A stretch of 62,814 bases of DNA, counting the filler, from Asterionella formosa (Eukaryota), in the NCBI GenBank assembly GCA_002256025.1. It is 34 parts of 34 records of this genome, joined end to end, with 100 filler letters (N's around TTAATTAATTAA, not from the genome) between each part and the next. Parts side by side here need not be neighbours in the genome. Positions count along the whole stretch, not along the records: positions 57,679 to 58,887 come from NKIB01003656.1; 33 more parts are not named here. One strand, given 5' to 3'. A model generated the notes under the pieces. The model worked only from the letters and a program-made list of their open reading frames with translations, had not been told where the DNA came from and did no database searches. Made by a program: the position numbers and the translations under genes. Positions 3,843 to 58,887 of this stretch are shown here, one piece after another (positions within the stretch are counted from its first letter, which is position 1; every line of letters begins with the position of its first letter).

Positions 3843-3989
3843 NNNNNNNNNNNNNNNNNNNNNNNNNNNNNNNNNNNNNNNNNNNNTTAATTAATTAANN
3901 NNNNNNNNNNNNNNNNNNNNNNNNNNNNNNNNNNNNNNNNNNAAATTGTCAGTAAAATCTTGAATAAGTAAGTTTCATGTTTCCAATGT

Positions 3990-22438: not shown

Positions 22439-22771
22439 ACAATTTGTTTATAGACTATGATAGTATACTGGTGCCAGTTAAAAATAGCTTTGAGTCACTT
22501 AACCTATTATTCACAATGTTTACATAGATTTTTTCTAATTTTCCAGTTATGACTAGTATTTTTAGTACGAAAAAGGTGTTCCTGATGTTGCACCGGATAC
22601 AACATATTTAGTTGTTGTCCGATAGGGATTCTGCTTTAGATAATCAGATAAATGTGTCGGAAAGTAGTGATCGGCCCAAGAGTGGCAAACTATTATACCA
22701 TTGAACCGTCATCTCCCGGAAATACACATATACTTTTGTGTAGAATCTAATATATATGAAGTTGCATTTAA

Positions 22772-25700: not shown

Positions 25701-28700
25701 CGAAAGGAGTCCAATGATGTTGATAAACTTCTCCGTTACTGGGACGTTATATTGTTGGTGCTGGTATTGATAAAGAAGAAAAGAGGAACAAGCTCCTTCT
25801 GTGCACCATTACGGCCACATTTGAGAAGCATCACCAAAATTGGGAAACTTCTTTTCTGACGAGCCGATGGAATTCGTCATACCTGTCATTCCAAAAAAAG
25901 ATCACAACGTCGTGTATTCTCCGTTTATGCATTGACACAGGCGAGTGAAAACGAAATAGTTGATGCCAGTTCATCTTCTCCCAATACCATTCCAAAAAGT
26001 AAAGATTGTGCTGCTTGCGTGCCCCTGGTAGATCTTGTCTCTAATTTCGTCTATCAAATCTGATAGACTTGATATAAAATCTCCCTCTTCCAAAGCAAAA
26101 TCAAAATGCAAATTAAAGGCAACTCCAGACATCGTTGCCAATCCGGAAGAAGCAGTCCATGATTTGTCACCAAAGAGATCCGCAATTGTAGGAGTGATTG
26201 AGAAAGTAAATAAAGCACAGGTCAAGGACGAAAGTGATTTGTCCTATTTATCCAGTAAGGAGATGGAAATATTGAAACAGGACATGGTCGTCAGTCTGGA
26301 TTTAGTTCATGGGTGCATTTAGTGGCATATTGTTGTCTTTCTGATGTAGTCTAAAATCTCGAGTAAAGTGAGTTTTCATCGCTGGTCCTACATGTTTCCG
26401 ATATTGCCTTGAAGTTTCAAATGATGTTTTGTTAAACAAGCTAGACTCTAGGACCACATAGAATTTGTTGAGAACAAAATCCAGGACAATTTAATCTAGT
26501 CTCTTCTCCTTGCCTTTGTCATCATGATCAAAGTATCTAACCAGTAAGAGTTAGTCCTTACTCTTTCGTTGTCTCTTGAACAGACATGAAATAAGCCATA
26601 GAAACACGTTTTCCCTGTTTGAAAAATCTGCGATTGGTATCCCCTTCACAACCAAGATCGTTCCATTCCTTGTAGCACTCGGAACATTTGCCATTCCAGA
26701 TGATAACAAGTGATATATGCCACTATCGATAGCGTGCAAATGTCAAGTTGTCAAGAAAATCGTGACTGTAACAGAACAAGGAAGCAGAAAGGGATAAAGG
26801 TCTGTCAACTATAGGATTAGACAGTGGGTGAGTGCTGGTTCGGAAGCGATGCAGCACCAACATACTCAGTGATAGACATTTGATTGGTAGCGCAAAGCTA
26901 CAGTTTCATAGTACCAGCTTAGTAATAGGTACAGTTTCACTGTAGCCACGTCATTTTCCGACCGGTTATTGAGACAAGGGGAAGAATGGAATGCTGGTAG
27001 GGCAAACCTACAGTTTCACAGTCGTACCAGCGTACTAGTGATAGGTAGAGTTTCACAGTACCGGGTATTCGAATTCCTGTTAAGTCTTGTATATGTTATC
27101 TAATCACACATACTGTTAGGGTATTAAATGTTCCTTCGAAAAAGTTACTAGACATACAGAGATGTATGTTATGCACACTTTTTGAAGAAGAGGATATGTT
27201 GAGATATTGTTTAAAAAATTCATGCCGGTAATGCATACTATTCCACATAACAAACAGATGAGGGAATGATGATAGAGAGCCTGCCTTCTACCAGTATCTA
27301 TCAAACCAACCGGTGAGAAGAGGTAAGTTATGTGATTGTTTTGCTTCTCAACTGTGGCTGGCTACCAAGGGGCTTATGATCAGTACCGTGTGAGACCGGA
27401 AGCAAATTATAAAATTGTATCGCTGTTCGTGTGCACTGCTACCACTCAAAACTTCTTCACTTCCTCAGGACGAACGATAAAAAATCAACCTAATTACGAG
27501 GTAAGAAACCGCACTTAATATCTTTGTGCACAATTCTGCAGTGGCTTTGTAGTGTCTGTGTCCAATAATTTGGATTTCGACATTAATAACATCTTTCCCT
27601 TCCATAAATGCAGATGTGAGGGTTAACAACGCTACCCTGTAACCCATCAATCAACAGTGAGAGCATAGGTAAGTTACTATACTCTCATTTGACGCTCTTT
27701 ATTTCGATTAGAACGACGTGAAGTTACTATAAAGATTGTTTATGTCATCAGTTCGTGGCACATGTGTGGCTGGAGATGCTTTAATCGTTACAACACTTTT
27801 GCTAACATTGATATTAGTATCTCCTCAAAATCACACAGGAACCTTGGAGAATGTGGCTTGCTACCATTCTTAATGGAAGCAACAATCAACCATGAGAGCA
27901 CAGGTAAGTTGTTATATGCACATTGCCTGCTCATGAGGAAATTGGAGTGATGGACTGTTCATGTGATCGTTTCGTTGCACATATATACGTTTAGATGCCT
28001 TGCTTACTTGATGCAACAGTTTTGATAACATTGTTGCTATTATCTCTTACAGGAAAGTTGTACAAGAACATTGGAGAATGTGACTTGCTGCCATTCGCAA
28101 TGGTAGAGGTTCGAATAAAGCATCATCAATTTCGTTTACTCTCTCATTTCATTTTGAATTGGCAATGATCTAAACATAGCTACCGGAAGTGAAAATTATG
28201 GTATTGAAGACCACTGTGTGCTCATTCTGATAGAGGATGCACAGTGGAAAGTATGGGTGACCAGAAGTAGAATATTTGAGTATTAGCTAAATGGCAATCC
28301 ATTTAATTCGATTTGTATCATTGATCGAACATGATAGTAGGTTTGATCAATGAGAGAAATAAGTTAGATCAGTAGTAATGAACGTTAGATCCAAAGCTAA
28401 AAATTCTATTTGATATTAGCATTCCAAAGGTTAGACCGAATGAATAAGTGATTTGATCTCATGATTACTATCTTTAGATCGAACACCAAAATGTTAGTTG
28501 ATATCAGTCAGTTATTTTTAATGATCAATCAGTATTTCTGTATGATCAATCAATGTTTCTGTATGATCAATCAGTTTTTTTGTATGTTCAATCAAAAATA
28601 ATACGTCATACTGAGAATTTTTGGGGCAGTGGGTCTTATAGCAAAACTGTTAGGCCTAACGGCTTTTTAATTTACAGACGCAAGCACCTCTGGAACGCGG

Positions 28701-29336
28701 CATTTTTCTGTTTCTGTTGTTGTTGCTTGTTAAAATATAGAGCAAAACTGTAATATAAAAGACGATTGTGACATAAGAAATCATTTCGAATAAATGCCAC
28801 CTCACTTCTGAAAGTTTTTGAAATGACATACATAGGTGGGCTTTTGAAATGGCAACAAAAATCACAGCATTCACAGAAGATGCAATCCTCACACCCCTCC
28901 AGTTCCGACTCTACTACAATCAACAAGTCTTGGCATGTAGAACAGCTATCATGAACGGAGATAAATTTGATGACACCATTGTTGTCCAAATGATGTTTAT
29001 TTTCAATCTTGGTGGATTGTTGCGACTGTTTGTTTCTTAACGGTACATTGAAACTAATCAACAATATTTGCCATCATGCTGCCAGCTCGAATGAATCATA
29101 TTTGTTGATCCTATTATAGGGTTCATATACATCGAGCGATGTACTAGACTATATCTATATATTTAGCGATTTCGAAAAGGAATCTATCTAAACACAAGCA
29201 AATTTCCACTGATTTAAATATTTCAAATGAAATCATGTCATCCAAAATTATTCCATAGAAATTCGTAGTTCCGGGGAATTTCGGCAACCCTAAGCAATAT
29301 TGTAAATTTTTGGCTTAGGGTTGAAATGCAGGAACC
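22772..29336 (-). mobile_element. 6.6-kb non-autonomous Kolobok-type DNA transposon carrying internal cargo
   Basis: TIRs GGTTCCTGCATTTYAACCYTA. TTAA on both sides (22768-22771 and 29337-29340). GG...CC termini. A Cys-rich remnant near 28850-28960 is homologous to the KolX-like ORF at 32748. Confidence 0.8.
24306..24740. repeat. Diverged AT-rich tandem repeat with a period of about 177 bp (about 2.5 units)
   Basis: TTGATGATAATT.TGATATATCAA starts at 24306 and 24483. Units are colinear, with a partial third unit after about 24650. Confidence 0.75.
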
Positions 29337-29674
29337 TTAACCGCCATGGACCATAAACTTTAGAAATAAATGAATCAATTTGTCACTCTTAGTAAATAAA
29401 TGCAATATTTCCCAAAGTCCAAAAAATGGAGCCATATTTTATAATGTCAGAGACCGTAATTTACAGCAGAGTTGCTTCCGACACACCAAAAAATGAAGCA
29501 AGCAAATCGCAGTCATCTCATTAAGCAACAACGATAAAGCCTACAGTAAGAAAACAGCCTCAACCACCCAAAAAGTACAAGTTGACACCCGTTTCTTTGG
29601 ATAAGACTGTAGTGTCACTTATTTAAGAAAATATTTAGTTATGGAATTAGAAACTAGAAAGGCAAAATAACAAT

Positions 29675-30683
29675 GGCGGGGATATTACGTCGATGAAGTC
29701 GCCTTTTATTTTGGTTGGATTGGATTCCTGACGGCGCGGCTCCTCGTCTCTGACTTCCTTGGAACTTGTGCATCATTTTATCGATGCCAACGAAATGATA
29801 CCATTGACAATGACGAATACACACCATTTTATGGATAAATCACTTTCCTTTGGGCAATTTGTTTTTGCAGTTTTGGGGACGTCAAGAGTACCAATGGTCA
29901 TACCAATGGGGAACACTAGTGAATGAATACGAACGACAAACCTGTTTTGAAGTGCGCACTGAGTTCAAGGGGAAATTGATAATATCTCCAGTGACGGGAC
30001 GGATAGAAGTACACTATCCACAGTTCAAGCGACGGCTAAAAATTACTGTGTCTGCCATTTTGACCCCATGATTGCTCAGCGTTTGACTAGAAATAATTCT
30101 AAAACTTCTTTTCGCTTTCAATTGAAGCAGAGCTTGATGAATATGAACAGTTTGACGACGACATGGAAATCGTGATTCAGTATGGTTACGTGACACTCTT
30201 TGCATCGGCCTATCCATTGGCATCACTAATTGCAATCGTGGCCAACTTGATCGAAATTCGAGCTGATTGTTTCAAGCGGATATTTTTGTGTCGAAAGCCC
30301 AAGTCGACACGGAGTAATGGCTTGAGAATGTGGAAGACTTTGTTACTAGGAATTACATGGTTCTCGGCTCTCACAAATTGTCTCATCTTTGATTTCACGT
30401 CCGGTCAAATGCGAGAGTACCTTCCTGGATTTTACCATTATGACGATTCGGGTCACTTACGTTTGATACCAGGCAAGGGCTGGATTGTTTTTTTTTAATC
30501 ATTTTTGTTGTTTGTATCATTTTTGGAATGGAACGTAGCTTTTTTTATACAGGGTTACTGATCCGTGCGGTTGTTCCTGAGATTCCAGAAATCATCATGA
30601 AGGAGCTGGAGCGAACACAATTTGTGCATGAGGAAGACTCACGCATTCTCAGAGATTTGGCGGTTCAACAGAAGGACCAATAA
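29675..30683 (+). pseudogene. Anoctamin/TMEM16 pseudogene (C-terminal part, internal deletion, frameshifts)
   Basis: Segments DEVAFYFGW, WGT...RTEFKG...SPVTG, MEIVIQYGYVTLFASAYPLA...NLIEIRAD and ALTNCLIF...VPEIP. Stops and frameshifts are present and the middle TM segments are missing near 30070-30120. Confidence 0.85.
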
Positions 30684-31079
30684 TTTCGCAACTACTCATG
30701 CATGAATGAGATTAGATCAGTGTTGCATATCTTTGAAAGAAACACACCTCCTCCATGGGCTTGTGTGCATACAGCACTCCACTCCCAGTTGTCGTCCACC
30801 TGAACGCATACTTTTTAAGCATACATACCACATCTCTTTTTATCTTGTGTTTTAATTGGTCAAGCCTAAGGAATTTGAATATTTTGCGTTGACGTTCGGC
30901 ATCTAAGAAAAAATGAGGTTACCTTAACTCATGCACCATAAACCACATTTCTCCATCCATGTTGCTGTGCCTTGCTGCGATTATTGATTTGATTAAATCC
31001 TTGATTTTGATGCGTCTTAAAGCCGTTGACTACTTGCCATACCAGAAAAAAAATCATGCAATCCCATCTACCAGGAACG

Positions 31080-31813
31080 CTATCTTCTACCCTTGAGCAA
31101 ACCGATGGCCTCCAGCGGAACCAACAGATCAACTTCGTTGGGTATACGCCCAGTCTCCCACTTACTGTAGACTGTGACTCCATCTAAAATCATTTCGAAA
31201 GCACCCGTCTTTTCATACTTATTCAGTACTCTCGGAATGACAAAGAAAACTAGGACGAATGAAACAAAATAATTTTCCTTCACCTTATAGTAAAACGTAG
31301 GAACCGATCGAAATCTCAATATGTTGGTCCACAGTCCATCTCCAAAAATGATGAGTCCCATCGCGAAAAGTTGCGTGCCCTTCATGAACATCATGAGCAG
31401 CTCAATGATTGGTGGTGGAGGGTAATTGCCACCGTCAACGTGAATCCCAGGAAACTCGGCTTCAAGAAAATCCTTGAGGTAGTGGAAATTCATTTGCAAT
31501 TCCCATTCCATACCAAATAGGAATTTGACTGAATGTTCAGCGGGATTAGGTGGGGGAGTAGTCAAATCTTGAGGGAGGACAGTAGCATCATCCTGTCCAG
31601 GGATTCAAATAGTTCCATTCATGGAAAGTCATTGTGAGTACACAACTGTGTCTGAGACAAAAACATTAAGCCAATTTAAAGAATCGATTTATTCCGCCAT
31701 AAACTTACTTTTTGAGAAAAAGCGATACCAGAGAGTAAGATGCAAAGGAAGACACAAAGAACTCTCTGGCGGTCGAACCGGAACGAGATACCGGTACTCG
31801 AAGTGCCTATCAT
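31080..31813 (-). CDS. Selenoprotein T (SelT/Rdx) family homologue with two exons (31813-31709, 31592-31080) and no CxxU motif
   Basis: A 35-aa signal-peptide exon is followed by a 116-nt GTAAGT...CAG phase-0 intron. SelT hallmarks GGNYPPPP, TGAFE and VYSKxxTGRIP are present. The motif position reads FLF-GMEW. Confidence 0.88.
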
Positions 31814-32044
31814 GGTCAATACAAATGAAGTTTTGTCACTGATGGCGAAACATGTGAAAGAAGAAAGCAAGATTTTGTCTGAACGATGAGCGATCTGGTT
31901 AGTAGTACTCGGAGTACCACACGAGAATTCAATAGTTACCTGGTATCGCGGTATGCTACATGCCGTTACTATGATATGTTTTATTCTCCTGAGATACCGG
32001 TACCTGGTACTGGTACCTGGACCATCAGGCACCCCGGTCCTAGT

Positions 32045-32230
32045 TGGTATCTAACTAGAAGTAGGACGGTAGTATTTGTTGAATTACACCAAGGTGTACA
32101 AAAAGTTTTATGTAGTTATTGCAGTCATCGAGTTCTCTCGATATTGTTGGGTTCTGATATATAGGATATAACTCCAACCCTATATATATACCGGAATATC
32201 TGTATTCATTTTAGGCGGGATCGCTCACCA
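32045..32230 (-). mobile_element. Diverged solo LTR of the Gypsy-like family at 5767-5965
   Basis: TGGT...ACCA termini. Shares GTATCTAACTAGAAGTAG, TCGAGTTCTCTC and GATCGCTCACCA with the other copies. No clear TSD. Confidence 0.7.
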
Positions 32231-32747
32231 CGTATCGGTTCCTGGTACCAGGTACCAGGTACCGTACCAGTACCCTGGTACCATTTGAAACAGTGAAGTC
32301 AAATTAATCTTGTTGTATCTCCAAAATCAGGCTAGACATGGTCTCTTTTTTAGTCATGAACATGAATCAATCTTTGAGTCTTGTCGTGAATATGACTCGA
32401 TTTTCTCATTTATGACTTAATTGAGGCTGTGGCCCAGGCTTGATCCTAGTTTGAAGAAAAAATCGTTGCAAAATTGACGTGAAACAGGGAATTTGTTTCT
32501 GTGTCTTCCCATGATGCAAGTATCTGTCTGAATATTTAAACTAAGTAGAAAATGGCGCCACATTGACAGAGTTCTATTTCAAAAAGAATGAAGGCATTTA
32601 TGTTTTATCTACATTGCTCTATTTAGATATAAATTTAATCCCCTCCCCCAAATACACATGTATAGTCTCTAGCTATATATACCTCAAGCATATCATATAG
32701 TCATCCTTTGAGCAACAAAATAACATTGAACAATGCAACAATCAACC

Positions 32748-33203
32748 ATGAGTTCTGTTGGATTACCCATAGTGAATGCCGAGAACTCTCTTTCATACAA
32801 TCATGTTCTGTGCCCTACTTGTGTTGATCATGTCATTGTTGAATCCGAAGTTGTTGCAGGCTGTGGGAATCGCATATTCTGCGAATGATGTGACTTCGCA
32901 TGCCCAGAGTGTCAATGTTGATGGAACGAGATGGAGGAGTGAGTTGAGCAATGCATGGAGACAGAATTGGTTCAGCTTCGACTTGACGAAGATGCCATGG
33001 TCACGCCGGTGGGTCAAGGAAAAAACCTTAAATATAAGTTTCTTGTTAAGACAATCTATGGTTCACTTAGTAAAGACATCCGAATAAAATCCCCAGATTC
33101 TTGCCTAAAGTGGGTTTGTTCGCTTCTCAAGAATAAGGATCCCAAAGACAAGTACACTGGTTACCAACCAGTGTCAAAAAGGATTAAACATTGTAGCAAA
33201 TAA
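32748..33203 (+). pseudogene. Kolobok accessory KolX-like ORF (Cys-rich, P2X7 C-terminal-like), interrupted by three in-frame TGA codons
   Basis: Single frame from ATG 32748: CPTC...FCE*CDFACPECQC*...KYKFLVKTIYGSLSKDIRIKSPDSCLKWVCSLL...KYTGYQP, resembling the KolX YR..WG.LG..R..LP.C...IR..FP...Y.GF pattern. Confidence 0.6.
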
Positions 33204-33399
33204 ATTTTTGTTATCAATAAATTTTATTTGAAGTCATCATTAGATTTTTGAAAAATTTCCTCTATCATGTTCAATCTTTCAATGAATACTCGAATACTCA
33301 AACATTTTAATCATAGATCATAAAAAATTAAAATCCTCATTAATTTATTACATCATTACTGCATTTCAAAACTATTGACAATGACGAGATAAACCTTGC

Positions 33400-34700
33400 C
33401 TCGATTACTTATGGCGGAAAAGGACGCCGCAGTCGAAATGAAAGTAATGAAACAAATTGACGAATCTGAAACACTGGCTGATACGACAGAAGTCAGACCT
33501 CCACTAGCAGCGACACTGAACAGACATCGTTTACTCCTGTCAATAGAATCTTTGCAGAAATTTCAACAAACCGGTATTAGCTGTAGTAAATGCAATGAAA
33601 AGGTAAGATCGCAATCGTATAACAATGGCTGCAAAACAAGCAATAGCAGATTTTCACACTGTAGTACCTCTGAGTACTATTCAAAACAACTGGACTACTG
33701 CGTATATTCTAAGTTATGCAACACTTATGACTAACAAGCTGCCCAGTGATTTGCGTCCGACAATCATCATGTCGAATGCCCTAAGAATCACCACTTGGGT
33801 AGTTCCAAGCAATCAATGGAACCTGATGCCGGGGTTGACATGGTGATCAAGGCAGTGGATAAATATCAAGTTTTCTACACTACAATGATGGTTTGTGATG
33901 ACGATTCCACTATAAGAGCTAAATGCAAATGGTCTTATAAGGATTTACAACTACAAAATCCATTGTTATATGGCCAAAAAAACAATGGCGCAAAAAGGCG
34001 AACCATGGATGCCTCCTCCCACTACATGTCAAAGAACAGGTTTTTAATTTTTTCAATCAGATCTCTCTCACCAAGTTTGCGTATTACTACGCCCATGCTA
34101 CTTGATTTCTCAAGTTCCAAAATCCAATGTTAGATGACAAAACAGGACTGCCTGTAACTGAAACTTTATTACAGTTCTTGCTTCATCAAGAAAAACCGAG
34201 CATAAACATTTGAAGATTTCCTTGGAGCATCAATGGCGCCAATCCACCACTTATTTGACAGTCATGAGCACTGTAATCCGGAATGGTGTCCTGCAAAAGC
34301 AAATAAAATGTCAGTACAGGAAAATATTGGGGCAATGAAGACAAGCATGGTGATTGAGGAATCATAGCTAGTATACAAGTACAATACACCAACATAACCT
34401 TCACAAATTTGGATCATTACATAATTTTGCATGTAAGAACCAAAGCTGGCTGTTTCCTTTCCAATCACTCAACAATTCAATGATCCATCAATTTCATCGA
34501 AAGGACGAGCAATGAGTGAGTGAGAACAAGATGGTGTTTTTGAAGCTCTCCTGAAGTGAACAGAATCACCATGACAGGTGAGAAATAATGCACTGACAAA
34601 TATTTAGTAAGTCCAAGAATGTGGAAGGAGGACCTACATGCTTTGGCATGAACAAATTTCAATTCCTCGAACATGGCATGACCTTGTTGTCTATGATTGT
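33400..34700 (+). pseudogene. Decayed Kolobok-type DDE transposase
   Basis: HVECPKNHH.GSSKQSMEPDAGVDM...MVCDDDSTIRA matches the C.KN..GSS..ME and xDxDS motifs of Kolobok transposases. Many frameshifts; limits are approximate. Confidence 0.75.
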
Positions 34701-35181
34701 GTGCATTCCCTGTTCAGCTGGAGATGAGTAAAGCAGTAAGAAAATCGTTGAGACACATCATTGTAATGGATATGAAATAATTTAGAGGTTTTTTTGGTGA
34801 TTTCAAAAATAATATCAATAGTATGTATACTTTACTCTCTCATTGTAGAATTATTTGAGCAGCACAATATGCCAGCTAATAGAAACACTGTCAAATGTTT
34901 TTGAAATTGTTGAATACATAACTGGATGATCATCATGTACTCGAAAAATGACGGTTTTATACCATCAATATGCATTACAATGATTCGTTTGTACCATAGC
35001 ATATACCAGAGTCGACCTTGAATTACAAAATATCATCAGTCACCTATTATACGAGGCCGTAGACAATGTGCGCTTGTACATAGGAACAACAAGGAAGTAC
35101 ATTATCTGACATAATTTTTACTTACACAACATGAATTCACAAAAGGCATTCTGAATGTATTTTTAGTCGACTAATCGCAAC

Positions 35182-35865
35182 ATGACGTTTACCAACAAGC
35201 CCGTCATCCCCCGGCGTTTGCTGAGTTTCTTTGGTGTATTGCTTGTAACGATGATGACATCAGCCTACACATGCCACGCGTATCTAATGACGCTCCCTTG
35301 TCGTCGAACCGAAGTAAATGACATGGCGTCAAGAACAAGTTCATCTCTGATTGTCTTACTTTCAAACGACAGCGACGAAGAACAAGAGGACCACAGCATG
35401 GTTGAAGATTCACCGCTTCAAACGATTGGAAAAGGGATTGATGTCGTTTGGAGCTCCTCTATGTTTCCAGCATTTTTATTTATGGCTCCATTTTTGTCCA
35501 ACCCCAATATCCGAATGCACTTGTCTCCACCCCTTTTGGGTATTATTATTACAGCAGTGAGTGCTTGGTATTTTGTACCGACGCGGTTGGCCGAGATTAG
35601 CAATATTCTAGATCATCGACTAGAAGCCTTGCGACAAATTAAGCTGGCTCGACAAGCGCAACTGGCTGGATCTGGAACCGGGGAAAGTGTTGCCGGGGCC
35701 ATGAAGGTGTATCAGGACATTGTGCAACAGGAGTTGGCCTTACGGTATATTTTGCCTGGTATACCCATACTGGCTCCTCCAGAAGAATTAGTTATTGATG
35801 TTCGCCAATATCTCAAGTGTGATATTAACCAATTTGGTGAACTTGTTCCAATACAATTGGACTGA
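35182..35865 (+). CDS. Hypothetical membrane protein with an N-terminal signal peptide (possible bipartite plastid presequence)
   Basis: Uninterrupted 227-aa ORF with a hydrophobic N-terminus and two further hydrophobic segments. No family recognised. Confidence 0.6.
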   Translation: MTFTNKPVIPRRLLSFFGVLLVTMMTSAYTCHAYLMTLPCRRTEVNDMASRTSSSLIVLLSNDSDEEQEDHSMVEDSPLQTIGKGIDVVWSSSMFPAFLFMAPFLSNPNIRMHLSPPLLGIIITAVSAWYFVPTRLAEISNILDHRLEALRQIKLARQAQLAGSGTGESVAGAMKVYQDIVQQELALRYILPGIPILAPPEELVIDVRQYLKCDINQFGELVPIQLD

Positions 35866-36204
35866 ATTAAATTGAAATGAAAGTGAAGGACCCCATAAAG
35901 AGCACAAGGGAGAAAGGGGTCGTCATCAACAGACATGATGTAATATGAAAGCATAGTCACAAAATGATTCTGCATGTGTTAAATATTGCCAGCTATTTCA
36001 AAATGGAAATCGATGGCTTGCCGAAAATAAAAGTTCCATTTACTTTCTACATTGTGAGCATGAATCAAGAGTCCTTTAACAACGGATATCTTAACTTGGT
36101 TTAAAATCAACAAGATGAGTTTTTCAAGAAAATTCGAACAAGGTGAAGAAAATCTGCAGTTATATTGAGTCATGTTCATACAAAGTGTCCACAAGAATGT
36201 CATT

Positions 36205-36606
36205 TTAGCAATTATTAGTGGTCACCTCAGAGGGCTCAGTAAGGCTCCGAGATAGGTGAGGGGCCATAATTTTTATGTAATGTCTTATTGATTCATCATT
36301 CTCAAAGCCAGCCTGACAGCATAGCTTGTAAATATCCTCCACTTCCTTGTCATGGCCTAACCCTGCTGCAGCCCGAAAGAAAAAACAATAAGTTTCTGCA
36401 GAGGGTTTGTCATTCAATTGACTATTGGCCCGCTGAAATATTTCTGATGCAACCATGAATGCCTTCTCGCGACTTTGCAAATCAAAGGATTCAGAAAATG
36501 CACATGCCATCATTGCAGAATTGTAACTTTTGATGTTTGGGGGGATCGACTGTTCCTCCATTTCAGATAAAATATCCCATGCCATTTGGGCTTTATCCAA
36601 TGATTT
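36205..36606 (-). CDS. PPR protein, C-terminal part (5'-partial)
   Basis: PPR motifs PNIKSYNSAMMACAF and KPSAETYCFFFRAA, and the IYKLCCQAG tail typical of these proteins. Open to the contig edge. Confidence 0.85.
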   Translation of the reverse strand, partial: KSLDKAQMAWDILSEMEEQSIPPNIKSYNSAMMACAFSESFDLQSREKAFMVASEIFQRANSQLNDKPSAETYCFFFRAAAGLGHDKEVEDIYKLCCQAGFENDESIRHYIKIMAPHLSRSLTEPSEVTTNNC

Positions 36607-36707
36607 GNNNNNNNNNNNNNNNNNNNNNNNNNNNNNNNNNNNNNNNNNNNNTTAATTAATTAANNNNNNNNNNNNNNNNNNNNNNNNNNNNNNNNNNNNN
36701 NNNNNNN

Positions 36708-37857
36708 CCGAACCGCTGACGCGAGCCTTTACAGCCACGGTGGCTACCTGACCTACGTTGTAGAAGGCATTGTTGATGCGCTCCTGGTAGTCTGGCGGGT
36801 CGAAGGTGGTCACCGTGCTCGTGTTGGCCGCTGGCGTAGTGGCACCGACGTAGGCGCCGGTCACCGGGTTGTAGTAGGTCGTGCTGCTGGCGGTGACGCC
36901 ATTGGTTGTGGTGGTCACATTCATGCCCAGCACAGACTGCCCCTGGAAGCTGGCATTGACATAGTCGTACTTCATGCCCATGGTGCCTGCACCGGGGTTG
37001 GACGTGGTGGTGTAGGTCAAGGAATCGCCGGCCTTGGGAACCAGTGGCGCGCACTCGTTGGCGGTGGCTGGTGGTGTCACCACGGGTGGGGTTACGACTG
37101 GCGGTGTGACGACCGGTGGTGTCACCACAGGTGGAGTGACAACGGGTGGAGTCACTACGGGCGGAACGACGATGGGTGGAACCACCACCGGCGGAACAAT
37201 GGCAATCAACGATTTGAGCGCAGCACCTTGGGCCGCACCTGCCCGCAGGTCGGCCAGTGTTTTGCCCGCGCTGGCGGTCACAGTGGCCAGGCTATCGAGG
37301 ATTTTGTCGTCGACATCGCCGACTTTGAAGGCGCCTACCAACAGGTCGAGCAGAGGGCTCTGTCCCGTAAGCGCGACCACCTGGGTGGTGACGTAGATCT
37401 TGGCTGCGTCCAGGCTGGCTTTGATGGCGTTGCCCTTGGCCGCATCAAACGCGGCAAAAGCGGTGGTGGGTAAGCCGCCCAGCGCTTTGGTGACTACGAG
37501 GTCGGTGAACGGGGTGATGTTGACGCGCCCGGGGTCGGTGGCAAAGCCGTGCAGGGTCACGCTAGGCGTACCACCCACTACCTGTAACATGCAAGGTGTC
37601 GTTTGCCCGCCGTTCAAACTCAATGTAAAGCTACCGTCCGCGGCGGTGGTGCCCACCAGGGGGGCGCCCGTGGCGCATTTGGCGGTGACCGACGCATTCG
37701 CCAGACCGGCCCCGGTGGCCGCCAGGCCTTGTAAGCTGGCAACAGTGGGCGTGGAGTCTGCGTTGCCGCCACCGCCGCAAGCCACCATCAACAGGCAGGC
37801 CGCACTAGAGGCAGCGAGAAGAAATCCCTTGCGGGGCAGGGCTGAAGAACGTGGCAT
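36708..37857 (-). CDS. Bacterial (probably Burkholderiales-like) surface lipoprotein with a (PPVVT)n linker; 3'-partial; foreign contig
   Basis: Contig is strongly GC-rich. AGGAG RBS lies 5 nt before the ATG. Lipobox LMVA-C followed by GGGG. GLAATGA..ANASVTAKC domain. No introns. Confidence 0.85.
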
Positions 37858-38019
37858 GAAGGCTCCTGAAGATGTGGACAGTACTGAAATTGTCCAGTCC
37901 GCAGGAGCAGATGCCTACCNNNNNNNNNNNNNNNNNNNNNNNNNNNNNNNNNNNNNNNNNNNNTTAATTAATTAANNNNNNNNNNNNNNNNNNNNNNNNN
38001 NNNNNNNNNNNNNNNNNNN

Positions 38020-39231
38020 TATTCGCAAAGGACCGGCTCCTTTGAATTTGGAGATTCCGCCATATAAGTTTATTGATGAAGCAAAGGTGTTGATTGGTTA
38101 ATTTAAGAGAAAGGACATGAATGTGGCTGGTGTGTGATCAGATACATTATGATGTAGCAGGTCAATGGTTGATCTTTGCAAAGGATGACAAGTAGAATTA
38201 ATAAAATTACCCACGTGTTGCACAACAGTCACAATGTAACACTCCATCCTTCATCTCCTATCATATGATCTACCATATACATAGTTTACTCACTACATAT
38301 TTTTATGGTTGTGGTCCCTGGAAACCCTATATATTTAAAATAACAAATTGCCTATTTAGGGTTTGCGAAAATCATGCTGGAATGATTGGGCACATTTACA
38401 CTGAAACAATATAAAAACTCTGGTTGAATGTTTAAGTACTATTTGAAATACACCAAACAAGGATAAGCTCCTCCTGAACCAATACAACCTACCGATTGGA
38501 TAAACCATTTTCTTTCCATAGATTGTTCAATTCAATGGATTTATAACTTTTCTCATACATTCAATTGGCAGATGTACATATATCTCTACATAATGTGTTT
38601 GTGTAATTGAAATCCATCAAGAGTTGATTTAGCAATCACATTTCTAATTTAAGTAGCAAAGTAATCATCAAATAGTAGGTACTTATTGCACTTTGATAAT
38701 GATGGGTTTCAGTCCATTCCTTGTACATGGGTTAAGCAACTATTTGCTTCAACTGATTCATAGAAACACTAGACTAGCTACATGGTGCATCAAGAATACA
38801 AAGAATATACCTGTACTAGATTCAAAATTGATTCAACAAAGCCATGTTTCGTCATTGTTATTCTTGAATGGCTGATGGTGGGTCTATTAGCTAGGAATTT
38901 TTATGTAGTAATAGTTGTCTGAGTAATAGAATGCCAGTAGTATTAGTTTGTCCATCCATTAATAATTATTGCTATGATCCACAATCCACACTAGGTCCGC
39001 CAAAGAACTATCACAATTTAGGATTGTTTTATTGAGCGAATATATTTTTGTTATTGCTTTCATCATCATATATTATATTATATAAATATAAATTATAACT
39101 TATAAAACACCAAACTCGGCTCATACATCGCCATACTTCTCCTGTTGCTGGCTGCAGCATCACACATCCATTTATGTATACATACACATACACAGCTACC
39201 CATCAAGCATGTCCATGAGCACCACCAGCAC
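38020..39231. repeat. Near-duplicate of contig 57679-58887 (allelic haplotig or repeat variant)
   Basis: Both start TATTCGCAAAGGACCGG and end GAGCACCACCAGCAC. They differ by SNPs and small indels. Confidence 0.95.
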
Positions 39232-39528: not shown

Positions 39529-41511
39529 ACTAAGTGGAAGAATGCCATATTACGATCCTCGTTTTCACTCTCAGAGATCCACTACACCATCGTCAAAAGA
39601 TACATCATGTGACCGATATGGTCTTGTCAATACTGATAGGAGCGATGATGAAGTTTCTTCTCTTGTAGTTGACATCAGAAAAGCGCCTCTAGTTGCTTCC
39701 TCAATTGATAATTCCCAAGGGCGTTCCATTTCATAAATTTTCTAATCGTGTGGACCAAGCAATACATGAAAAATTGAGAGAGAAGTATCTTGCACTTGCT
39801 AGAGGATTTTATCAAGTGACAACTGAACTTGATTATTACAAAGGTCTTTAGTCAGCCAGTGCAAAACTCATCATTACTTGGTTACAAAGCTTCATCAAGT
39901 GCAGCAATATCAGCTCAACGTGCATTGCTCTCTAAAATCGAACCTTCTGTTGTGACGAAGATTATGAGCTACAGTGAAACAGTAAGTTTTCGGGTCGATA
40001 GTTTGTTTTAAAGCCCATTCATGCTCTCCTATTTCTAGGCAAGTTGTTCATTGTGCTACTTCCTGACACGACCTGTTCTTCCCTAGCTAGTTTTGCTTGT
40101 GTAGGTAAGTCCGCAACCACCTTTCGCAATTGGCGATTGTCTTAGCCGCAGCATTACTAGTAAGGGAAACTCCGACCGCATAGGAAGGCGGAACAAGCTG
40201 CTTGTAGGGGGCAACCAACCATTTCTTGCACACCAGGCAATATCGTGCGGTACGGTAATGAGTGTGGGAGTCAAACCAAACAAGGCCAAACAACTGGTAG
40301 TTATAACAGTTTAATTGCTTGGGCTGGTGCTATGATGATGCTGGCAGTTACGAATTTCCAATTCCAAAGACTTTGATAAGTATTAATTAAGATAGATTGT
40401 TTTCATCACTTCGGCAAAATAAGGAGATCAATTTTGAGTTTGGAGAGAATAATGCAAAGTAAGCAAGACTATCTAACTTGTGCTTTGGGCTGCCCCTCTA
40501 TTGTCCCAGTCATTGTCATTTTCTTTTTTCAGCCATTTGCCTCNNNNNNNNNNNNNNNNNNNNNNNNNNNNNNNNNNNNNNNNNNNNTTAATTAATTAAN
40601 NNNNNNNNNNNNNNNNNNNNNNNNNNNNNNNNNNNNNNNNNNNCACCCAGATGGCTCAGAGAAAACGACCTTGTCATTGTGACGATTACTGGTGCAGCAA
40701 GTACAGCGAAGGCTAGAGCGATGCTCCCCACTTCTGCTCCTGCCATTACTGTCATGGTCTATCGAAGAAGATACTCAGAGTTGCAAAGACAACGATGATG
40801 GCGAAATAGTGTTGTGTACTCCCTGTAAATGAGTTGATGATAGTCGATGGAGGTGAATCACATCACACCATTACACAATGACGGGTAAAGTACCGGTACT
40901 CCATTTTGCTGACAGGTACTTGCCTGGTACCAGTTACAAGGGTTCAAGGGTACGTACTGGTAGTGGGACAATCATGGGAGGAGTTAATCTGGTCGCCTAT
41001 GTATGCAGTATCAAACCGGTATTAACCCTCTGCCTGCCTGCGTGCTCCCTTCGTACCTGGCAAGTTGCGGTAATTTTGCTGAAATTAAAGATTTAGCTAT
41101 CTTTATCTCAGATTAAAATGTTAGTTAAAGCAAAACGATCGCAACTTGCAGGTACCATGGTACTTCGAGTACCGGTACCAGGTACCTGGTACCAGGGTAC
41201 CGGTGCTACACCTATTTCTCCGTACTGTACTACACACTGCGGAAAAAATGGCGCGCTCCCACGAATGATCCAATTGGTCGGAGTTGGACACCATCACTCT
41301 ACCAGGTACTCGTCGTAAAGAAGTGTTTCTCCGTTTGAAAGAAAAATAATTAATATATATATATCTATACACAGATATTGAGCATGAAACGTTTTTCACC
41401 CTTAACTGTGTAAATATGTACTTACTCCGTAAAACCGGTACCTGGTAGTATAGCTTAGAGGGATTGGATGATTCGAAACCGACAATTTCGAAGACTTTCT
41501 ATACATAGAGG

Positions 41512-43266: not shown

Positions 43267-44477
43267 GAACGTAGCCTTTCACTACAATACGTCCTTTGTA
43301 TCGAATACTCTTATCCTGCTCGGATTTCTTCTTGAATACCCAGCGTGTGCCTAAGGGTTTTCTGCCCTTGAGATTGTCACGAGGAACCATTTTCCAAACA
43401 TTTCGCTTGTAGAAATTGTTGATTTCATTTTTAATAGCAACGGTCCACTGCTTGCTCTCGTCTCCTTTCATAGCCTCCTTGTAATGCTTTGGCTCCCCAG
43501 GATCGGAAGCAAGCGTTGTAGAATATGCATAGAACCTCTCTACTCCTTCTTCACTTTGAAATAGTTCATCATCATCTTGATAGGCCGCTTCAGAATAATC
43601 TATTTCTTCAATTGATCCTTTGTCCTTGTCATCTACTTGTAAGCTGCGCCGAGCACTGCGTTTGCCAGTAACTTCTTTCCAACCATCAAGGCGTTTCAAT
43701 TCTCGTTCCAATTTTGCTTTCTTCGAAGCATCTTTGTTGATCTCATCACCTAACTTCCCCACTGCTTCGGATAGCTGAAATCTTGTTTGTTTCACAACTG
43801 GAACAGGTGTTTCCAAATCAACATCCTGCTGGATAGGTGGGACAACAGGAAGAACATCTTCGTCCTGCTTTTCATCATCAATTGGAATAACAACCACTTC
43901 TGTGTCCCCTTCCACATTGAAATCCCTCAAACCTGCGATTGGACTTGTTTGGCCATGCCAATCAGCCCAGCGAATGTTTCGACTATTTAAAATCTTTCTT
44001 GTCTGAGGGTTAAACATTCGTTAAGTGTCTCCAGAATGATCATGAGAATAACCAACCATCACACATTTAATGGCCTTTTCTTCGAGTTTATTTGTTTTCT
44101 TAGCACCAATTTTCACCCATCCGATTCTGCCAAAATGCATTAGATGATCGTAAATCATTGGAACCTTTTTGTAAAACTTCTCATCTGCACTTTTTTTGAT
44201 GCTTGCATGGTGTGCTTGATTGATCTCTTCATCCTCAATTTCAATCGTCACTCCAATAAATGCATATTCTGTTTCTTCGCATGTAATGTAGACCTTTGTG
44301 TCTTCAACATATTCATAGTCAAAAAACGTCTTGTTGTTTGTAGTCAAGTTAATTATTTCAAAATCATCATCTGTATCAGACTTTTCATCATGGATTTCGA
44401 TCGTTTCAACAATACCAACAAACATTCCAGTTTCTTTCTTTTCCTTTGTTTTCTTTTCTTCAGGACAATCCTTAGCA
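43267..44477 (-). pseudogene. Defective Ty1/Copia: gag tail joined to the post-integrase SH3 region and RT start
   Basis: AKDCPE knuckle end, then SADEKFY...FGRIGWV...CVMVGYS.DHSGDT*RMFNP (TAA at 44021-44023), then EPKHYKEAM...RWVFKKK...YKGRIVVKGY. Protease and rve core are absent. Confidence 0.85.
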
Positions 44478-44577
44478 NNNNNNNNNNNNNNNNNNNNNNN
44501 NNNNNNNNNNNNNNNNNNNNNTTAATTAATTAANNNNNNNNNNNNNNNNNNNNNNNNNNNNNNNNNNNNNNNNNNNN

Positions 44578-45788
44578 CAAAACTAGATTCCCGAATCTTC
44601 ACCGTTGAATTTCAAGATGGAGAACAACAAGATATAGCATACAATATTCTTGCAGAACACATGTACTCCCAAATTGACACTGAGGGTAAACAACACCGTC
44701 TTTTAGTTGCAATAATTAACCATCGCAAGAACAACAGGGCTATAGACAAAGCAGATCAATTTAGGTCTGTTCAAGGAAAACGAGTAACGAAAAAGACGAC
44801 AGCAGGATGGCAATTTGAAGTGGAATGGAAAGACGGCACCACTTCCTGGCTACCATTAAAGGCACTGAAGGAATCAAATCCTGTGGAAATAGCGAATTAC
44901 GCCATTGCGAACAAGATTGACACCGAACCAGCTTTTGACTGGTGGTCTAAAGATTTACTCCATAAACAACGACGACTAATTAAACTATCTCAGAAGAGGT
45001 CAATCCAAACTGGGTTTAAATTCGGTCTCCCTTTGCCCCTCACGGTGGCAGAAGCATTAGAAATTGACCGTAGAAACAATAACAGTTTATGGCATAGAAA
45101 TTGACCGTAGAAACAATAACAGTTTATGGCATAGAAATTGACCGTAGAAACAATAACAGTTTATGGCATGAAGCAATTATGAAGGAAATGACGAATGTCC
45201 GCATTGCATTTGATCTCAAGGAGAGAAACTGTCAGCCACCTGTTGGATACAAACAAATTCCTATGAAAATGATTTTCGATATCAAGATGGATTTTACCAG
45301 AAAGGCTCGTTTGGTTGCAGGAGGCCACAAAACCGACCCCCCTGTATCCCTTACCTACTCATCCGTTGTTTCCAGAGACAGTGTCCGAATCGCCTTTCTC
45401 ATTGCTGCAGTTAACCAACTAAGTATTATGATGGCAGACATAGGCAACGCCTATTTAAATGCAAGCACGGAAGAGAAAGTTTATGCGATAGCCGGACCTG
45501 AATTTGGAGAAGACGAAGGCAAACTGGCCATCATTGTTCGTGCCTTATATGGCTTAAAGAGCTCTGGTGCCGCGTGGCGCTCGCACTTTGCAGCCACGCT
45601 GCGAGACATCGGTTTCATCCCAAGTTACGCAGACCCTGATATGTGGTATCGAGAGGCTGTCACAAGAGAGGGTTTCGAGTACTATGAATACGTACTTGTT
45701 TATGTTGATGACATCCTATGTATTTCCAAGGATCCCAGCACAATCATACACTCATTTTCAGATCCTCCCTTCCTATATCGTTTAAAAG
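44578..45788 (+). mobile_element. CoDi-type (diatom) Copia pol fragment (chromo-like region and RT), frameshifted by a triple 37-bp repeat
   Basis: Motifs VEWKDGTTSWLPLKALKESNP, FDIKMDFTRKARLVAGGH, ADIGNAYL, ALYGLKSSGAAW and YVDD. The 37-bp unit starts at 45058, 45095 and 45132. Confidence 0.92.
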
Positions 45789-47010: not shown

Positions 47011-47394
47011 CATGCACTGGAGTTCTGTCTCCTACCCCACTCCCACCTGAGTATTCACTATCATGACTACTCGCGGGACCTCTCTCTAAGCCTGGCAGGN
47101 NNNNNNNNNNNNNNNNNNNNNNNNNNNNNNNNNNNNNNNNNNNTTAATTAATTAANNNNNNNNNNNNNNNNNNNNNNNNNNNNNNNNNNNNNNNNNNNNA
47201 TTTTCTTGATTTCGGAAGGCTTCCGGGCATGGTCGAGAACTGATTTATTGGAGACCCTGTCGTACACATTGACCAACGCTCGCTTTGGCCTTCGTGTAGC
47301 ATACAACGTTCATACATATAGCTACCGGTAGCTAATATATATATTAATAGAAACAACTAGTACTGCTGTGTTGTGTGCATGCATATCTAGAATC

Positions 47395-48285
47395 TCAAAA
47401 TGAGAAAAAAGATTGCCAAGTATGCTGAGGTTTAACTTGTAATACCGACCCAGGTATTCCTCCAATATTAGGGACAACAACAGCAGGAGCAGAAATACAA
47501 TCGACTGTAACAAACATGAGCTGTTTTCTCTTTCCTGATTCATAACCCATCAGGTGAGCTATCTCAAACATTTTAGAACGACGGCTATTAAATAAACTCT
47601 CACTTGGATCCTTACATGAGTTCACAATTGCAAAGATTCCAGTTGTTTCGTTGCGGAGTGATGCACACAATCGTGGATCAGTAAAATCAAATTCAGGCCC
47701 AAGCAATACAAAACCAAAGATTTTCCCCAACACTATGTAAGGTATACCACTTTCCTAGTCTATCCATTTGAAGTCGGCCCAATCATACCAAGACCCCTGT
47801 CCCAAATAATTGGGATGGGCATGGAAAGTATTTCCATCTCGTTTGTGTTCACACAGGACCTCAATTGACTTTTTGGTTATGAAGGGAAGCACTTCCTTTC
47901 CTAGAAATCGAATTAAATCAATGTCAACTCCTGATGTCTTTATAGTCGCCGAATTGGAAGTGACAGATGCAATAGCGAATCCACCATTATTTTCCTGTAA
48001 CTTTAAGATAAAGCGTGCACCACCTGTAGATGTGCTTATACTGTCAGTCCCAGTGCTTGGTGTTTCATTACTAGAACCATCATCGGCGAGCAAATCTGTA
48101 TCGTCATGTTCAAAAGGATCTTTTCCCAAAAATTCCCGACATGCAACACCTATGGCAATGTTTTCGATAATTCGTTGTCCAGATTGAAGGTCCATTAGGT
48201 GATGTCGTTTTTGAGATGTTTTAGCTGGTAACTTGCAAAGGAATTTTAAATTCTTTTCCATTGGTCCACCATTGAAAACTTGCGG
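47395..48285 (-). pseudogene. Second, inactivated copy of the Plavaka/CMC-like transposase
   Basis: 47200-48285 is the reverse complement of about 15890-16974. GAG to TAG change at 47755-47757. 5'-truncated where it joins unrelated DNA near 48285. Confidence 0.85.
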
Positions 48286-48821
48286 AACTCACAACATGTG
48301 ACTTGACCTCGTAGCGAAAACCTGGTACATAGCTCATAGGCATTGGTACAAGGTTCGAGTACCAGGAACTGGTACCGGTAGGTAAATGGTACTCCTCCTT
48401 TCGTAACGGTNNNNNNNNNNNNNNNNNNNNNNNNNNNNNNNNNNNNNNNNNNNNTTAATTAATTAANNNNNNNNNNNNNNNNNNNNNNNNNNNNNNNNNN
48501 NNNNNNNNNNATTCATTCTCATACCAGTTTCCATCTATAGGATTAGTCATACTGTGTGCTACAGTTACATGCCCAGCCCTAGAAGGGCTGGATGCTCTAT
48601 AGGGATGACGCCCAGAGGCGTCGTCCCTTTTCCCTAACCCTAACCCTAAAAAGTATTTGTAATGAAAGAAAAAAAACGATGTAACCGTAGCATACAATCC
48701 CTTTCATCACTCCTAGTCCAATCGTATGCCGGTACATACCGGTATTTGTTGTGACGTACCGGCTCTTAGTTAAAAACATGTGACAATCATGCATCATATG
48801 ATAGATAGGTGTCGTGTCTGA

Positions 48822-52440: not shown

Positions 52441-53600
52441 AAACTAACCGGTACATTTTTGTCATCTTAACTTTGAGAGAAAGTAAACGTTTTGTCAGCT
52501 TTGTTCCAACAGAAGTGAATAGGTCCAACGAGCGACAAGAGCACTTACGCAATTTGGTTTGGTTTTGTTTTACATTGGTGCTCCCTAACAAGCGAAACGA
52601 GCTGTTGAATCAACTGAGAAAAAAGGAAATGTGGCTGCGTTTAGTTAACAATTTGTTGTTGTGCTGCCTGTCTCCCAACGATTGTCATCCAAGTAGCTAC
52701 CACATTGATGGCTTCATTACCTTAAACATTCTCCATCCTTCGAATGCGCAATGTGTCGAAGTCACAATGTTTTTCGTTATGTATTGTGAAAATTTTCTTT
52801 TCTCTTAATGTGCTTTACTACGACGTATCTTTTCATGAAGCAGCAGGCATTGTCTGTTAACATGACAGAACGATTTCAAAAATATATATGCCATGAATAT
52901 AGAAATAAAATTTGTAAATATATATATATTAAGTGTTGTACATTTATAAAATTCAAACGCGCTCTCGACATGGAACATCTGTCGATATTTTCTACGTCCG
53001 TTGAAACTAATTATTTAGACCGTTAAATAGCCGCCAGGGTTTTGGTAGCAAATTGTTTAAGCCCCTTTTTTGGTAGGGAGCTCTTCATGTGTACCGGTAC
53101 ATCATACCGGTATGACAATAACAATATATCATATATATATTCAGAGTACCAGTAGCAGGTAGTAAGTGATATACTGGGGGTAGTCGGAGTAGTAAACTAA
53201 CAACAGAACACCATATGTTCAGGACTGTTGCTACTGCAGTGGGACAGTAAATCATCATATTTTTAGGATCGTATGATCGTAAAAAACACCATATGTTCAT
53301 GACTGTTGTAATTACATTGGGACAGTAAATTATCATAGTTTGAGGATCAAATAATCGTAAAACTAAAAACAAATAGAACACCATATGTTCATGACTGTTG
53401 CAATTACAGTGGGACAGTAAATCATCATAGTTTTAGGATTGTATGATCGTGAAACTGAAAAGCGGTACCGGTAGTCGGAGTAATAAGCATGCAATAGAAC
53501 ACCATAGTAAATCATCATAGTTTTAGGATTGTATAAATAGAACACCATATACATATGTCTATGACTGCTGCTACTACAGCGGGACAGTACCGGTAAATGA
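52441..53600. repeat. Interspersed repeat family, copy 2 (see 3990-5155), with the 92-bp-family tandem array
   Basis: Colinear with about 4000-5155. The ACACCATATG/GGGACAGTAAATCATCAT units recur about five times, some truncated. Confidence 0.9.
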
Positions 53601-54019
53601 ATTTAAGATCATCGAACTTTAAGGAAGACAACGACAACAGCTGGTCGTGTNNNNNNNNNNNNNNNNNNNNNNNNNNNNNNNNNNNNNNNNNNNNTTAATT
53701 AATTAANNNNNNNNNNNNNNNNNNNNNNNNNNNNNNNNNNNNNNNNNNNNAATGACGATACAGATATCAAATTCTTCCTACGAGCAAACAACAGTGAAAA
53801 GAGCCACTTGCTTTCGCTCTCTTGATGGTATCAAAGATGCGGACAAGTTCAATAGTTAATTAAAGTACAGTATGCCAAATGCAGAAACGAGCGAGCGATA
53901 TGAAAATGAAATGCGTTCTAATCAGAATCATTCTATAACTATAGCTATGTGGACAGTAGTCTGTTACGCACATTTTCGTATCTCCTTCTATGCTGAATCT
54001 CAATAGTAGATGTAGTATC

Positions 54020-57678: not shown

Positions 57679-58887
57679 TATTCGCAAAGGACCGGCTCCT
57701 TTGAATTTGGAGATTCCGCCATATAAGTTTATTGATGAAGCAAAGGTGTTGATTGGTTAATTTAAGAGAAAGGACATGAATGTGGCTGGTGTGTGATCAG
57801 ATACAATATGATGTAGCAGGTCAATGGTTGATCTTTGCAAAGGATGACAAGTAGAATTAACAAAATTACCCACGTGTTGCACAACAGTCACAATGTAACA
57901 CTCCATCCTTCATCTCCTATCATATGATCTACCATATATATAGTTTACTCACTACATATTTTTATGGTTGTGGTCCCTGGAAACCCTATATATTTAAAAT
58001 AACAAATTGCCTATTTAGGGTTTGCGAAAATAATGCTGGAATGATTGGGCACATTTACACTGGAACAATATATAAATGTTTAAGTACTATTTGAAATACA
58101 CGAAACAAGGATAAGCTCCTCCTGAACCAATACAACCTACCCATTGGATAAACCATTTTCTTTCCATAGAGATTGTTCAATTCAATGGATTTATAACTTT
58201 TCTCATACATTCAATTGGCAGATGTACATATATCTCTACATAATGTGTTTGTGTAATTGAAATCCATCAAGAGTTGATGTAGCAATCACATTTCTAATTT
58301 AAGTAGCAAAGTAATCATCAAATAGTAGGTACTTATTGCACTTTGATAATGTTGGGTTTCAGTCCATTCCTTGTACATGGGTTAAGCAACTATTTGCTTC
58401 AACTGATTAGACTAGCTACATGGTGCATCAAGAATACAAAAAATGTACCTGTAGATTCAAAATTGATTTAGCAAAACCATGTTTCGTCATTGTTATTCTT
58501 GAATGGGTGATGGTGGGTCTATTAGCTAGGAATTGTTATGTAGTAATAGTTCTCTGAGTAATAGAATGCCAGTAGTATTACCGGTAGTTTGTGTGTCCAC
58601 TAATAATTATACCTATGATCCACAATCCACACTACCTGGTACCCGGTAGGTCCGCCAAAGAAATATCACAATTTAGGATTGTTTTATTGAGCGAATATAT
58701 TTTTGTTATTGCTTTCATCATCATAAATTATATTATATAAATATAAATTACTACTTATTCAAACACCAAACTCGGCTCATACATCGCCATACTTCTCCTG
58801 TTGCTGGCTGCAGCATCACACATCCATTTATGTATACATACACATACACAGCTACCCATCAAGCATGTCCATGAGCACCACCAGCAC
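57679..58887. repeat. Near-duplicate of contig 38020-39231
   Basis: Same start and end sequences. Carries extra TA-CC(N)GG-TA insertions. Confidence 0.95.

Follow-up and report, generated by a model that had tools for sequence, protein, structure and literature searches.

Older work on the footprints of Tc1 is said to come from Plasterk, and on the scars of mariner from Bryan and colleagues. Mariner-like elements have also reportedly been found in the diatom Amphora, for which our literature search gave no match. The scar of a Tc1/mariner element is textbook knowledge: as described in PMC7827188 and PMC4561436, it consists of a duplicated TA and a few terminal bases. In Mos1 the overhangs are 3 nt long and the transferred strand of the left end finishes in T-G-G (according to PMC4505599), and in Sleeping Beauty, on the account of PMC7827188, the footprints equal the 3' overhangs and the products of NHEJ repair are stereotyped. 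The Stowaway footprints of the Triticeae, as PMC1925063 presents them, have the form TA plus 1-4 bp of the TIR plus TA, and the same source describes an intron in which a new Stowaway element has entered next to an older footprint, at the same TA, with several distinct footprints at one site. For rice, PMC4423477 takes excision, that of Mariner/Stowaway elements included, to be a source of small indels throughout the genome; of the 94 excisions there, 8 were clean, and the majority carried deletions or filler DNA. Among the algae, active Tc1-Mariner elements are described in the haptophyte Tisochrysis (PMC10138859).

Regarding diatoms, a search of main texts, which covered few subscription journals, gave no description of such scars. 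The sequence-only reading of this DNA had proposed a process undescribed for diatoms. As far as that search goes the proposal stands, but in kind the process is known from the Stowaway elements of the Triticeae, at least as PMC1925063 presents them. Thus the mechanism is known in kind, and what is unusual for a diatom is the density of the scars, their uniformity and the building of arrays.

The window, that is, the whole stretch of 62,814 bases from Asterionella formosa that we analysed, is made of 33 pieces of 1209-1214 nt, in decreasing size, and one piece of 19,533 nt at 17075-36607. The pieces are linked by N44-TTAATTAATTAA-N44, and the linkers occur every ~1313 nt across 1215-61605. The window is thus a join of short unplaced contigs, in which distances and neighbourhoods across linkers are meaningless, and the sample is one of 60 kb, mainly of unplaced repeat-rich contigs. 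Copia-type retrotransposon fragments (integrase, SH3-like and RVT_2 domains) lie at 2630-3841 and 43268-45787, and a fragment of a Mutator-like transposase at 33750-34130. The PPR protein at 17075-18823 has named relatives in diatoms only, including Ditylum, Pseudo-nitzschia multistriata, Amphora coffeaeformis and Attheya, and its top matches reach 51-53% identity. The piece at 36708-37919 has a GC content of 63% (34-45% in the other pieces) and long ORFs on both strands, one of them weakly matching bacterial Ig-like; it probably entered the assembly as bacterial contamination, and the number of footprint motifs in it is zero. For comparison with other samples, the Logan contigs of four runs of four studies (X1, X2, X6 and X7) were placed on 17075-36607, with contigs 38020 and 57679 outside the comparison. 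The runs that match 17075-27074 are labelled as algae, freshwater or lake metagenomes, and X1 may be the source sample.

The palindrome TACCGGTA is the most frequent 8-mer of the window, with 49 copies, whereas 100 dinucleotide-preserving shuffles gave 0.36 on average and at most 2; the next 8-mer, ATATATAT, has 21. TACCWGGTA occurs 31 times (shuffle mean 0.36, maximum 3), TACCSGGTA 4 times and GGTACC 70 times in the whole window, and seven further TA-NNNN-TA palindromes have 0-2 copies each. When the segments between two TAs were compared with expectation, the outliers were CCGG (49 observed, 0.8 expected), CCTGG (19 and 0.2), CCAGG (12 and 0.2), CCAG (12 and 1.2) and CTGG (12 and 1.1), and segments of the form C...G made up 90 of the 310 of length 4 and 56 of the 238 of length 5. 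Altogether there are 75 tracts with 92 units, and the scars reach ~1.4 per kb; 23 of the 34 pieces have at least one unit, and the flanks of the tracts are diverse and unrelated. As a control, TACC(N0-1)GGTA is found 84 times in 59.9 kb here and 6 times in 119 unrelated metagenome loci (333,421 nt). The enrichment appears in those joins to which both sides contribute (CGG 10, CCGG 49, CCAG 12, CTGG 12, CCAGG 12, CCTGG 19, CCATGG 1), and in the same table of joins across the window the one-sided forms are not enriched (TA-CCA-TA 5, TA-TGG-TA 2, TA-CC-TA 12, TA-GG-TA 14). None of the 75 tracts falls within a Pfam-supported ORF, against ~10.8 expected from the 8607 of 59,910 bases (14.4%) in such ORFs, which is a rough test because the tracts are clustered.

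In addition, TA-GC-TA occurs 36 times in the whole window against 19 expected, and TAGCTA frequently adjoins TACCGGTA, for example in TAGCTACCGGTAGCTA at 16840-16855. This excess may be a second scar type or a target preference.

Five differences between copies, each a TA in one copy and TA-CC(N)GG-TA in the other, had been named from the sequence alone, and alignment of contig pairs and of tandem units recovered all of them at the same positions (Table 1). The contigs concerned are 95-97.5% identical. The pair 57679/38020 has 1186 aligned bases, with 29 mismatches and 7 gap events, and the pair 53032/4674 has 462 aligned bases, with 23 mismatches and 4 gap events; a TACCGGTA at 4734/53092 is common to both members of the latter. 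Of the 11 gap events in these two best pairs, 4 are changes from TA to TA-CC(N)GG-TA, with a two-unit compound among them; one more, at 38814 in the pair 57679/38020, is a change from TA to TA-C-TA. Taking all non-redundant self-matches together we counted 55 gap events, 31 of them of at least 3 bp, and 4 of those 31 belong to the TA-CC(N)GG-TA type. In all 4 of the CC(N)GG indels, and also in the 6:1 case of a tandem repeat, a duplicated TA bounds the insert and a single TA stands in the unoccupied copy. The anchoring of the indels at TA thus holds throughout. It had also been claimed that the inserted bases are not copied from the flank; apart from the TA itself this is what we found, the insert being the same at every flank. 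Hairpin footprints of the hAT type were discarded, as they would be inverted copies of the flank and the insert here is CCGG or CCWGG at every flank.

Regarding the nature of the copies, 38020-39231 and 57679-58887 are two entire contigs whose terminal 20 nt are identical at each end. Rather than proven paralogues, they could be two alleles, copies of a repeat or bubbles of the assembly. The pair 47200/16974 has 7 mismatches, 0 gaps and one TACCGGTA common to both. Here 15888-16974 and 47200-48286, which run in opposite orientation, show 99.4% identity across 1087 nt, with one contig end exactly common and divergence after it, a picture that resembles the edge of a repeat or a branch point in the assembly.

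Table 1. Positions in the window of the candidate footprints, their mosaics and the candidate source element.
Positions	Feature	Basis
58579-58586	TACCGGTA, a 6-bp CCGGTA gain at TA relative to the sister contig	sister contig has TA at 38944-38945
58633-58648	TA-CCTGG-TA-CCCGG-TA, a two-unit 14-bp gain relative to the sister contig	sister contig has TA at 38992-38993
38944-38993	TA sites 38944-38945 and 38992-38993 of contig 38020-39231, both unoccupied	alignment to sister contig
4829-4836	TACCGGTA	contig 52441-53650 has TA at 53193-53194
53105-53112	TACCGGTA, reciprocal of the event at 4829	contig 3943-5155 has TA at 4747-4748
53588-53595	TACCGGTA in one tandem-repeat unit	TA in siblings at 4883, 4975, 5067, 53241, 53319 and 53411
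1631-1706	mosaic TA-CCAGG-TA-CTCC-TA-CCAGG-TA-CCTGG-TA ... TA-CCAGG-TA-CCTGG-TA-CCTGGG-TA	sequence
6576-6714	densest mosaic, including TA-CCTGG-TA-CCTGG-TA-CCAGG-TA-CCGG-TA and TA-CCTGG-TA-CCAGG-TA-CCAG-TA-CTGG-TA-CCGG-TA	sequence
41153-41199	mosaic TA-CCATGG-TA-CTTCGAG-TA-CCGG-TA-CCAGG-TA-CCTGG-TA-CCAGGG-TA	sequence
9373-10002	TA-flanked MITE-like element, ~626 bp, inverted ends starting 5'-CCGTATACTTCATTGTCCTGGAC, no Pfam-matching ORF	perfect TIR and second copy
31937-32280	tracts 31937, 31995-32009, 32246-32261 and 32271-32280 in the 19.5-kb piece	gap-free bridging in three metagenome runs

We read the TA-CC(N)GG-TA units as probable excision footprints of cut-and-paste elements that duplicate TA, Tc1/mariner-like and including Stowaway-like MITEs, with CC...GG termini, and we give this reading a probability of roughly two thirds (0.68). 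It draws on the pattern in the sequence together with one low-copy element.

The units are not spread at random over the available TAs. We counted 13 pairs of strict units (CC N0-1 GG) that share a TA, where simulations with random use of TAs gave 1.7 such pairs on average and never more than 7 in 2000 runs. This is an excess of ~8-fold, and the arrays hold up to 4 units. The base preceding a tract is G in 46% (26% at all TAs) and the base following it is C in 42% (26%). Identical neighbouring units are found in 2 of 17 pairs, where permutation gives 5.8 on average (P=0.035), and because neighbours are so seldom copies of each other, slippage of a micro- or minisatellite was rejected as the main source of the arrays. 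CCAGG and CCTGG occur as neighbours in all four orders, and on these grounds we rejected the view that a double unit is simply one large scar with six bases per end. The sequence-only reading had held that each cycle makes new TA targets and so builds the mosaics. The excess of units sharing a TA and the small number of identical neighbours do fit repeated cycles better than slippage; these counts speak of the building of the arrays, and re-insertion itself is not demonstrated by them.

The two main classes of unit behave differently, with 43 single CCGG units and 6 in arrays against 13 single CCWGG units and 18 in arrays (Fisher p=3e-5). One simple process does not predict this contrast, which may reflect two or more source families or else two contexts of repair. 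CCAG/CTGG units (24) outnumber CCTG/CAGG units (5), which was not accepted as proof of CCA...TGG ends, because CCAG/CTGG are also expected as CpG-transition products of CCGG. Moreover they are dispersed like CCGG, a core neighbour being present in 4/24 of them, in 5/49 CCGG units and in 16/31 CCWGG units; therefore the excess does not fix the third base of the ends of the W class. The CCAG/CTGG forms are compatible with decay of CCGG by CpG transition.

Among the other explanations, one is that the motif spreads inside repeated DNA, the arrays growing when units of 6-7 bp slip or are exchanged unequally and the copies being mostly inherited with transposon or segmental copies. Many tracts do lie on short unplaced contigs, which are probably repeats. 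At 27289 a copy of a very-high-copy repeat reads TACCAGTA, and TACCGGTA stands in the loose ends of its other copies; hence one unit or more has been carried within a repeat family. Units also lie within a 55-bp tandem duplication of the contig 10510-11722. Nevertheless, the 75 tracts have unrelated flanks and the self-comparison gave few repeat pairs, identical neighbours fall short of the expected number, all four CCAGG/CCTGG orders occur, and the single 6-bp gains at TA between near-identical contigs would be left unexplained. We consider this explanation improbable.

The excision reading calls for a source element. The sequence-only reading had placed a MITE with TA-CC...GG-TA ends at 9375-10000, and this was borne out, as the arms at 9372-9400 and 9975-10003 form a TIR of 29 nt, 100% complementary and reading TA-CCG...CGG-TA. 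The TIR core is also found inside the element, as a third copy at 9444-9464. When metagenomes were scanned for the 14-nt TIR core, at least 119 loci matched, and among the matches listed one is a true copy (locus L081) and 118 are chance matches. L081 agrees with 28 of the 29 TIR positions, its likeness to both ends stops directly outside TA|CCG, and it has other flanks. This boundary of homology rules out that the MITE starts at CTTC instead of CCG, and its termini are therefore CCG...CGG beside TA. Being short and non-coding, with perfect TIRs, TA flanks and more than one copy (two are known), the element can be classed as a putative Stowaway-like MITE. At 250-300 of L081 the MITE copy lies within TA-C-TA-CTG-TA-CTG-TA-AAG-TA, that is, amid scar-like units. 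In viral contigs the 25-nt TIR of the MITE had 0 matches, and the 16-nt palindrome had one unrelated match and no enrichment.

The sequence-only reading also calls for an abundant TA-targeting element with CC...GG ends. An element with such ends exists, but we found one copy in the window and one (L081) among the metagenome matches listed. Its CCG...CGG ends match the CCGG units, whereas CCWGG is not derivable from them, and no TIR element with CCW ends was found in the window. Within the window there was likewise no site at which one copy carries the complete element and another copy the scar. Regarding the enzyme, 0 of 222 ORFs match a Tc1/mariner transposase family by Pfam (153 ORFs of at least 75 aa across the window and 69 of 40-74 aa in 22300-29500). 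The families matched by the 153 longer ORFs were copia-type RT and integrase fragments, PPR, anoctamin, methyltransferase and a Mutator fragment; the 69 shorter ones in 22300-29500 gave no Pfam match whatsoever. The claim of excision footprints at TA is thus supported by the constant insert, the TA anchoring, the 6:1 polarity, the reciprocal gains and the CCG...CGG MITE; on the side of the source, neither a transposase nor an abundant or CCW-ended element came to light in these searches.

Another element of the window lies at 22768-29340. It is ~6.6 kb long, with 25-nt inverted ends (92% complementary), TTAA on either side and no Pfam match among ORFs of at least 40 aa, and its contig depth, summed over the four metagenome runs, exceeds that of the single-copy sequence nearby by a factor of hundreds. 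In X1 and X2 there are contigs that link 22745 to 29375, possibly an empty site of this element. As a source of the scars we rejected it, because its flanks are TTAA rather than TA-CC and it has no Pfam match.

The excision reading can be put as four steps. The element would enter at a TA and duplicate it, as the MITE at 9373-10002 shows with a TA on either side. The transposase would then cut 2-3 nt within the element on the non-transferred strand, a cut geometry established for Mos1 and Sleeping Beauty, so that the flanks would retain the first bases of the element as a 3' overhang. In the third step, end joining, a stagger of 3 nt like that of Mos1 and Sleeping Beauty would let overhangs CCG and CGG pair via CG and give exactly TA-CCGG-TA, and ends starting with CCW, of which no example was seen, would give TA-CCWGG-TA. 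The scar would replace one TA by two, and further cycles at or beside old scars would yield the GGTACC and CCWGG mosaics; the excess of adjacent units is what is observed, and such cycles are its proposed cause.

A process specific for TA could also write short CC(N)GG palindromes by micro-insertion without a full transposon, through aborted transposition or the capture of end fragments in break repair. That our search of ORFs and copies gave neither a transposase nor an abundant source element would suit it, and so would the restriction of the enrichment to two-sided palindromic products and the strong clustering of CCWGG. However, a duplicated TA with a constant insert that matches the ends of a resident TA-flanked element is the ordinary prediction of excision. 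We know of no TA-specific process that writes CC(N)GG palindromes in this way, and we regard this explanation as unlikely.

A stronger form of the excision reading is a self-reinforcing writer of sequence in the diatom lineage, in which scars would be the preferred or the more numerous targets, arrays would be built from nothing, and the process would account for the top 8-mer of the genome and for a large share of the small indels in non-coding DNA. In this strong form it is a tentative proposal that we rather doubt; a self-amplifying component as such is plausible and partly supported.

The direction of the changes bears on a further explanation, namely that the indels are deletions, an ancestral TACCGGTA having been lost by recombination between its TAs. 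Any XY...XY structure may collapse by microhomology, and at 58579 and 58633 the polarity cannot be set without an outgroup. A ~92-bp tandem repeat is common to two contigs, at 4843-5116 and 53194-53600; six of its units have GGGACAGTAAAT and one has GGGACAGTA-CCGGTA-AAT (53581-53598). As TA stands in six sibling units and TACCGGTA in one, the event at 53588 is polarised as an insertion. The reciprocal presence and absence at 4829 and 53105 within one pair would require either two gains or two exact losses, and the roughly 60-fold excess of the 8-mer cannot arise by loss. Therefore deletion is very improbable as the general explanation, and the earlier claim that these are insertions, rather than mostly deletions from an ancestral TACCGGTA, is sustained by the tandem units and the reciprocal gains, with 58579 and 58633 standing without an outgroup.

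Six tracts of the 19.5-kb piece could be compared with the contigs of other runs. The tracts within 31937-32280 are bridged with 0 gaps by contigs of X1, X2 and X7, with 9 substitutions in X7, and the tracts 22352 and 22409 are bridged with 0 gaps by X1, X2 and X6. For tract 31789, X7 is the sole run that bridges it by at least 31 letters. Among the 12 of 126 rows listed, the indels of 17075-36607 relative to the run contigs are dominated by the high-copy repeat. The six tracts are hence real in independent assemblies and look fixed; as they are fixed across samples and the CCAG/CTGG forms fit CpG decay, some of the scars would be old; others differ between contigs of 95-97.5% identity. That sequencing data might fail to support the tracts was a doubt raised from the start, and for these six the contigs of other runs speak against it. 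An artefact of sequencing, assembly or contamination, which the fragmentary assembly of joined short contigs might suggest, has a next to negligible probability, given that these six tracts are found in gap-free contigs of runs from other studies (X2, X6, X7) and that the motif is missing from the 63% GC piece 36708-37919 and from recognisable coding ORFs.

If the scars are true, the genome would hold a dense and readable record of transposon excisions, from which excision rates relative to substitutions and the end-joining spectrum of diatoms could be estimated. They would also show what share of the non-coding sequence, including new palindromes and CpG sites, has been written by transposon traffic. 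Indels of the TACCGGTA type would then be a major and predictable class of haplotype differences that complicates assembly, and they may explain why many contigs stayed unplaced.

Compared with the known systems, the scars resemble those of Tc1/mariner elements, since here too there is a duplicated TA with a stereotyped insert of terminal bases (as in PMC7827188), and the CC...GG termini recall the left end of Mos1 as given in PMC4505599, a likeness to mariner ends that is to be taken as a resemblance and not as a test. They differ from them in that the scars reach the density given above and include the top 8-mer, no transposase or autonomous element was seen in the window, and one-sided scars are not enriched. 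The rice study shares with ours the treatment of excision as a source of small indels, but the products here are uniform, either CCGG or CCWGG (compare PMC4423477). The Stowaway elements of the Triticeae offer a comparable TA-flanked MITE to that at 9373-10002 and the same form of scar bounded by TA. However, the Triticeae case, as PMC1925063 presents it, concerns a single intron locus across genera, whereas here 60 kb contain dozens of sites, with arrays of up to 4 units.
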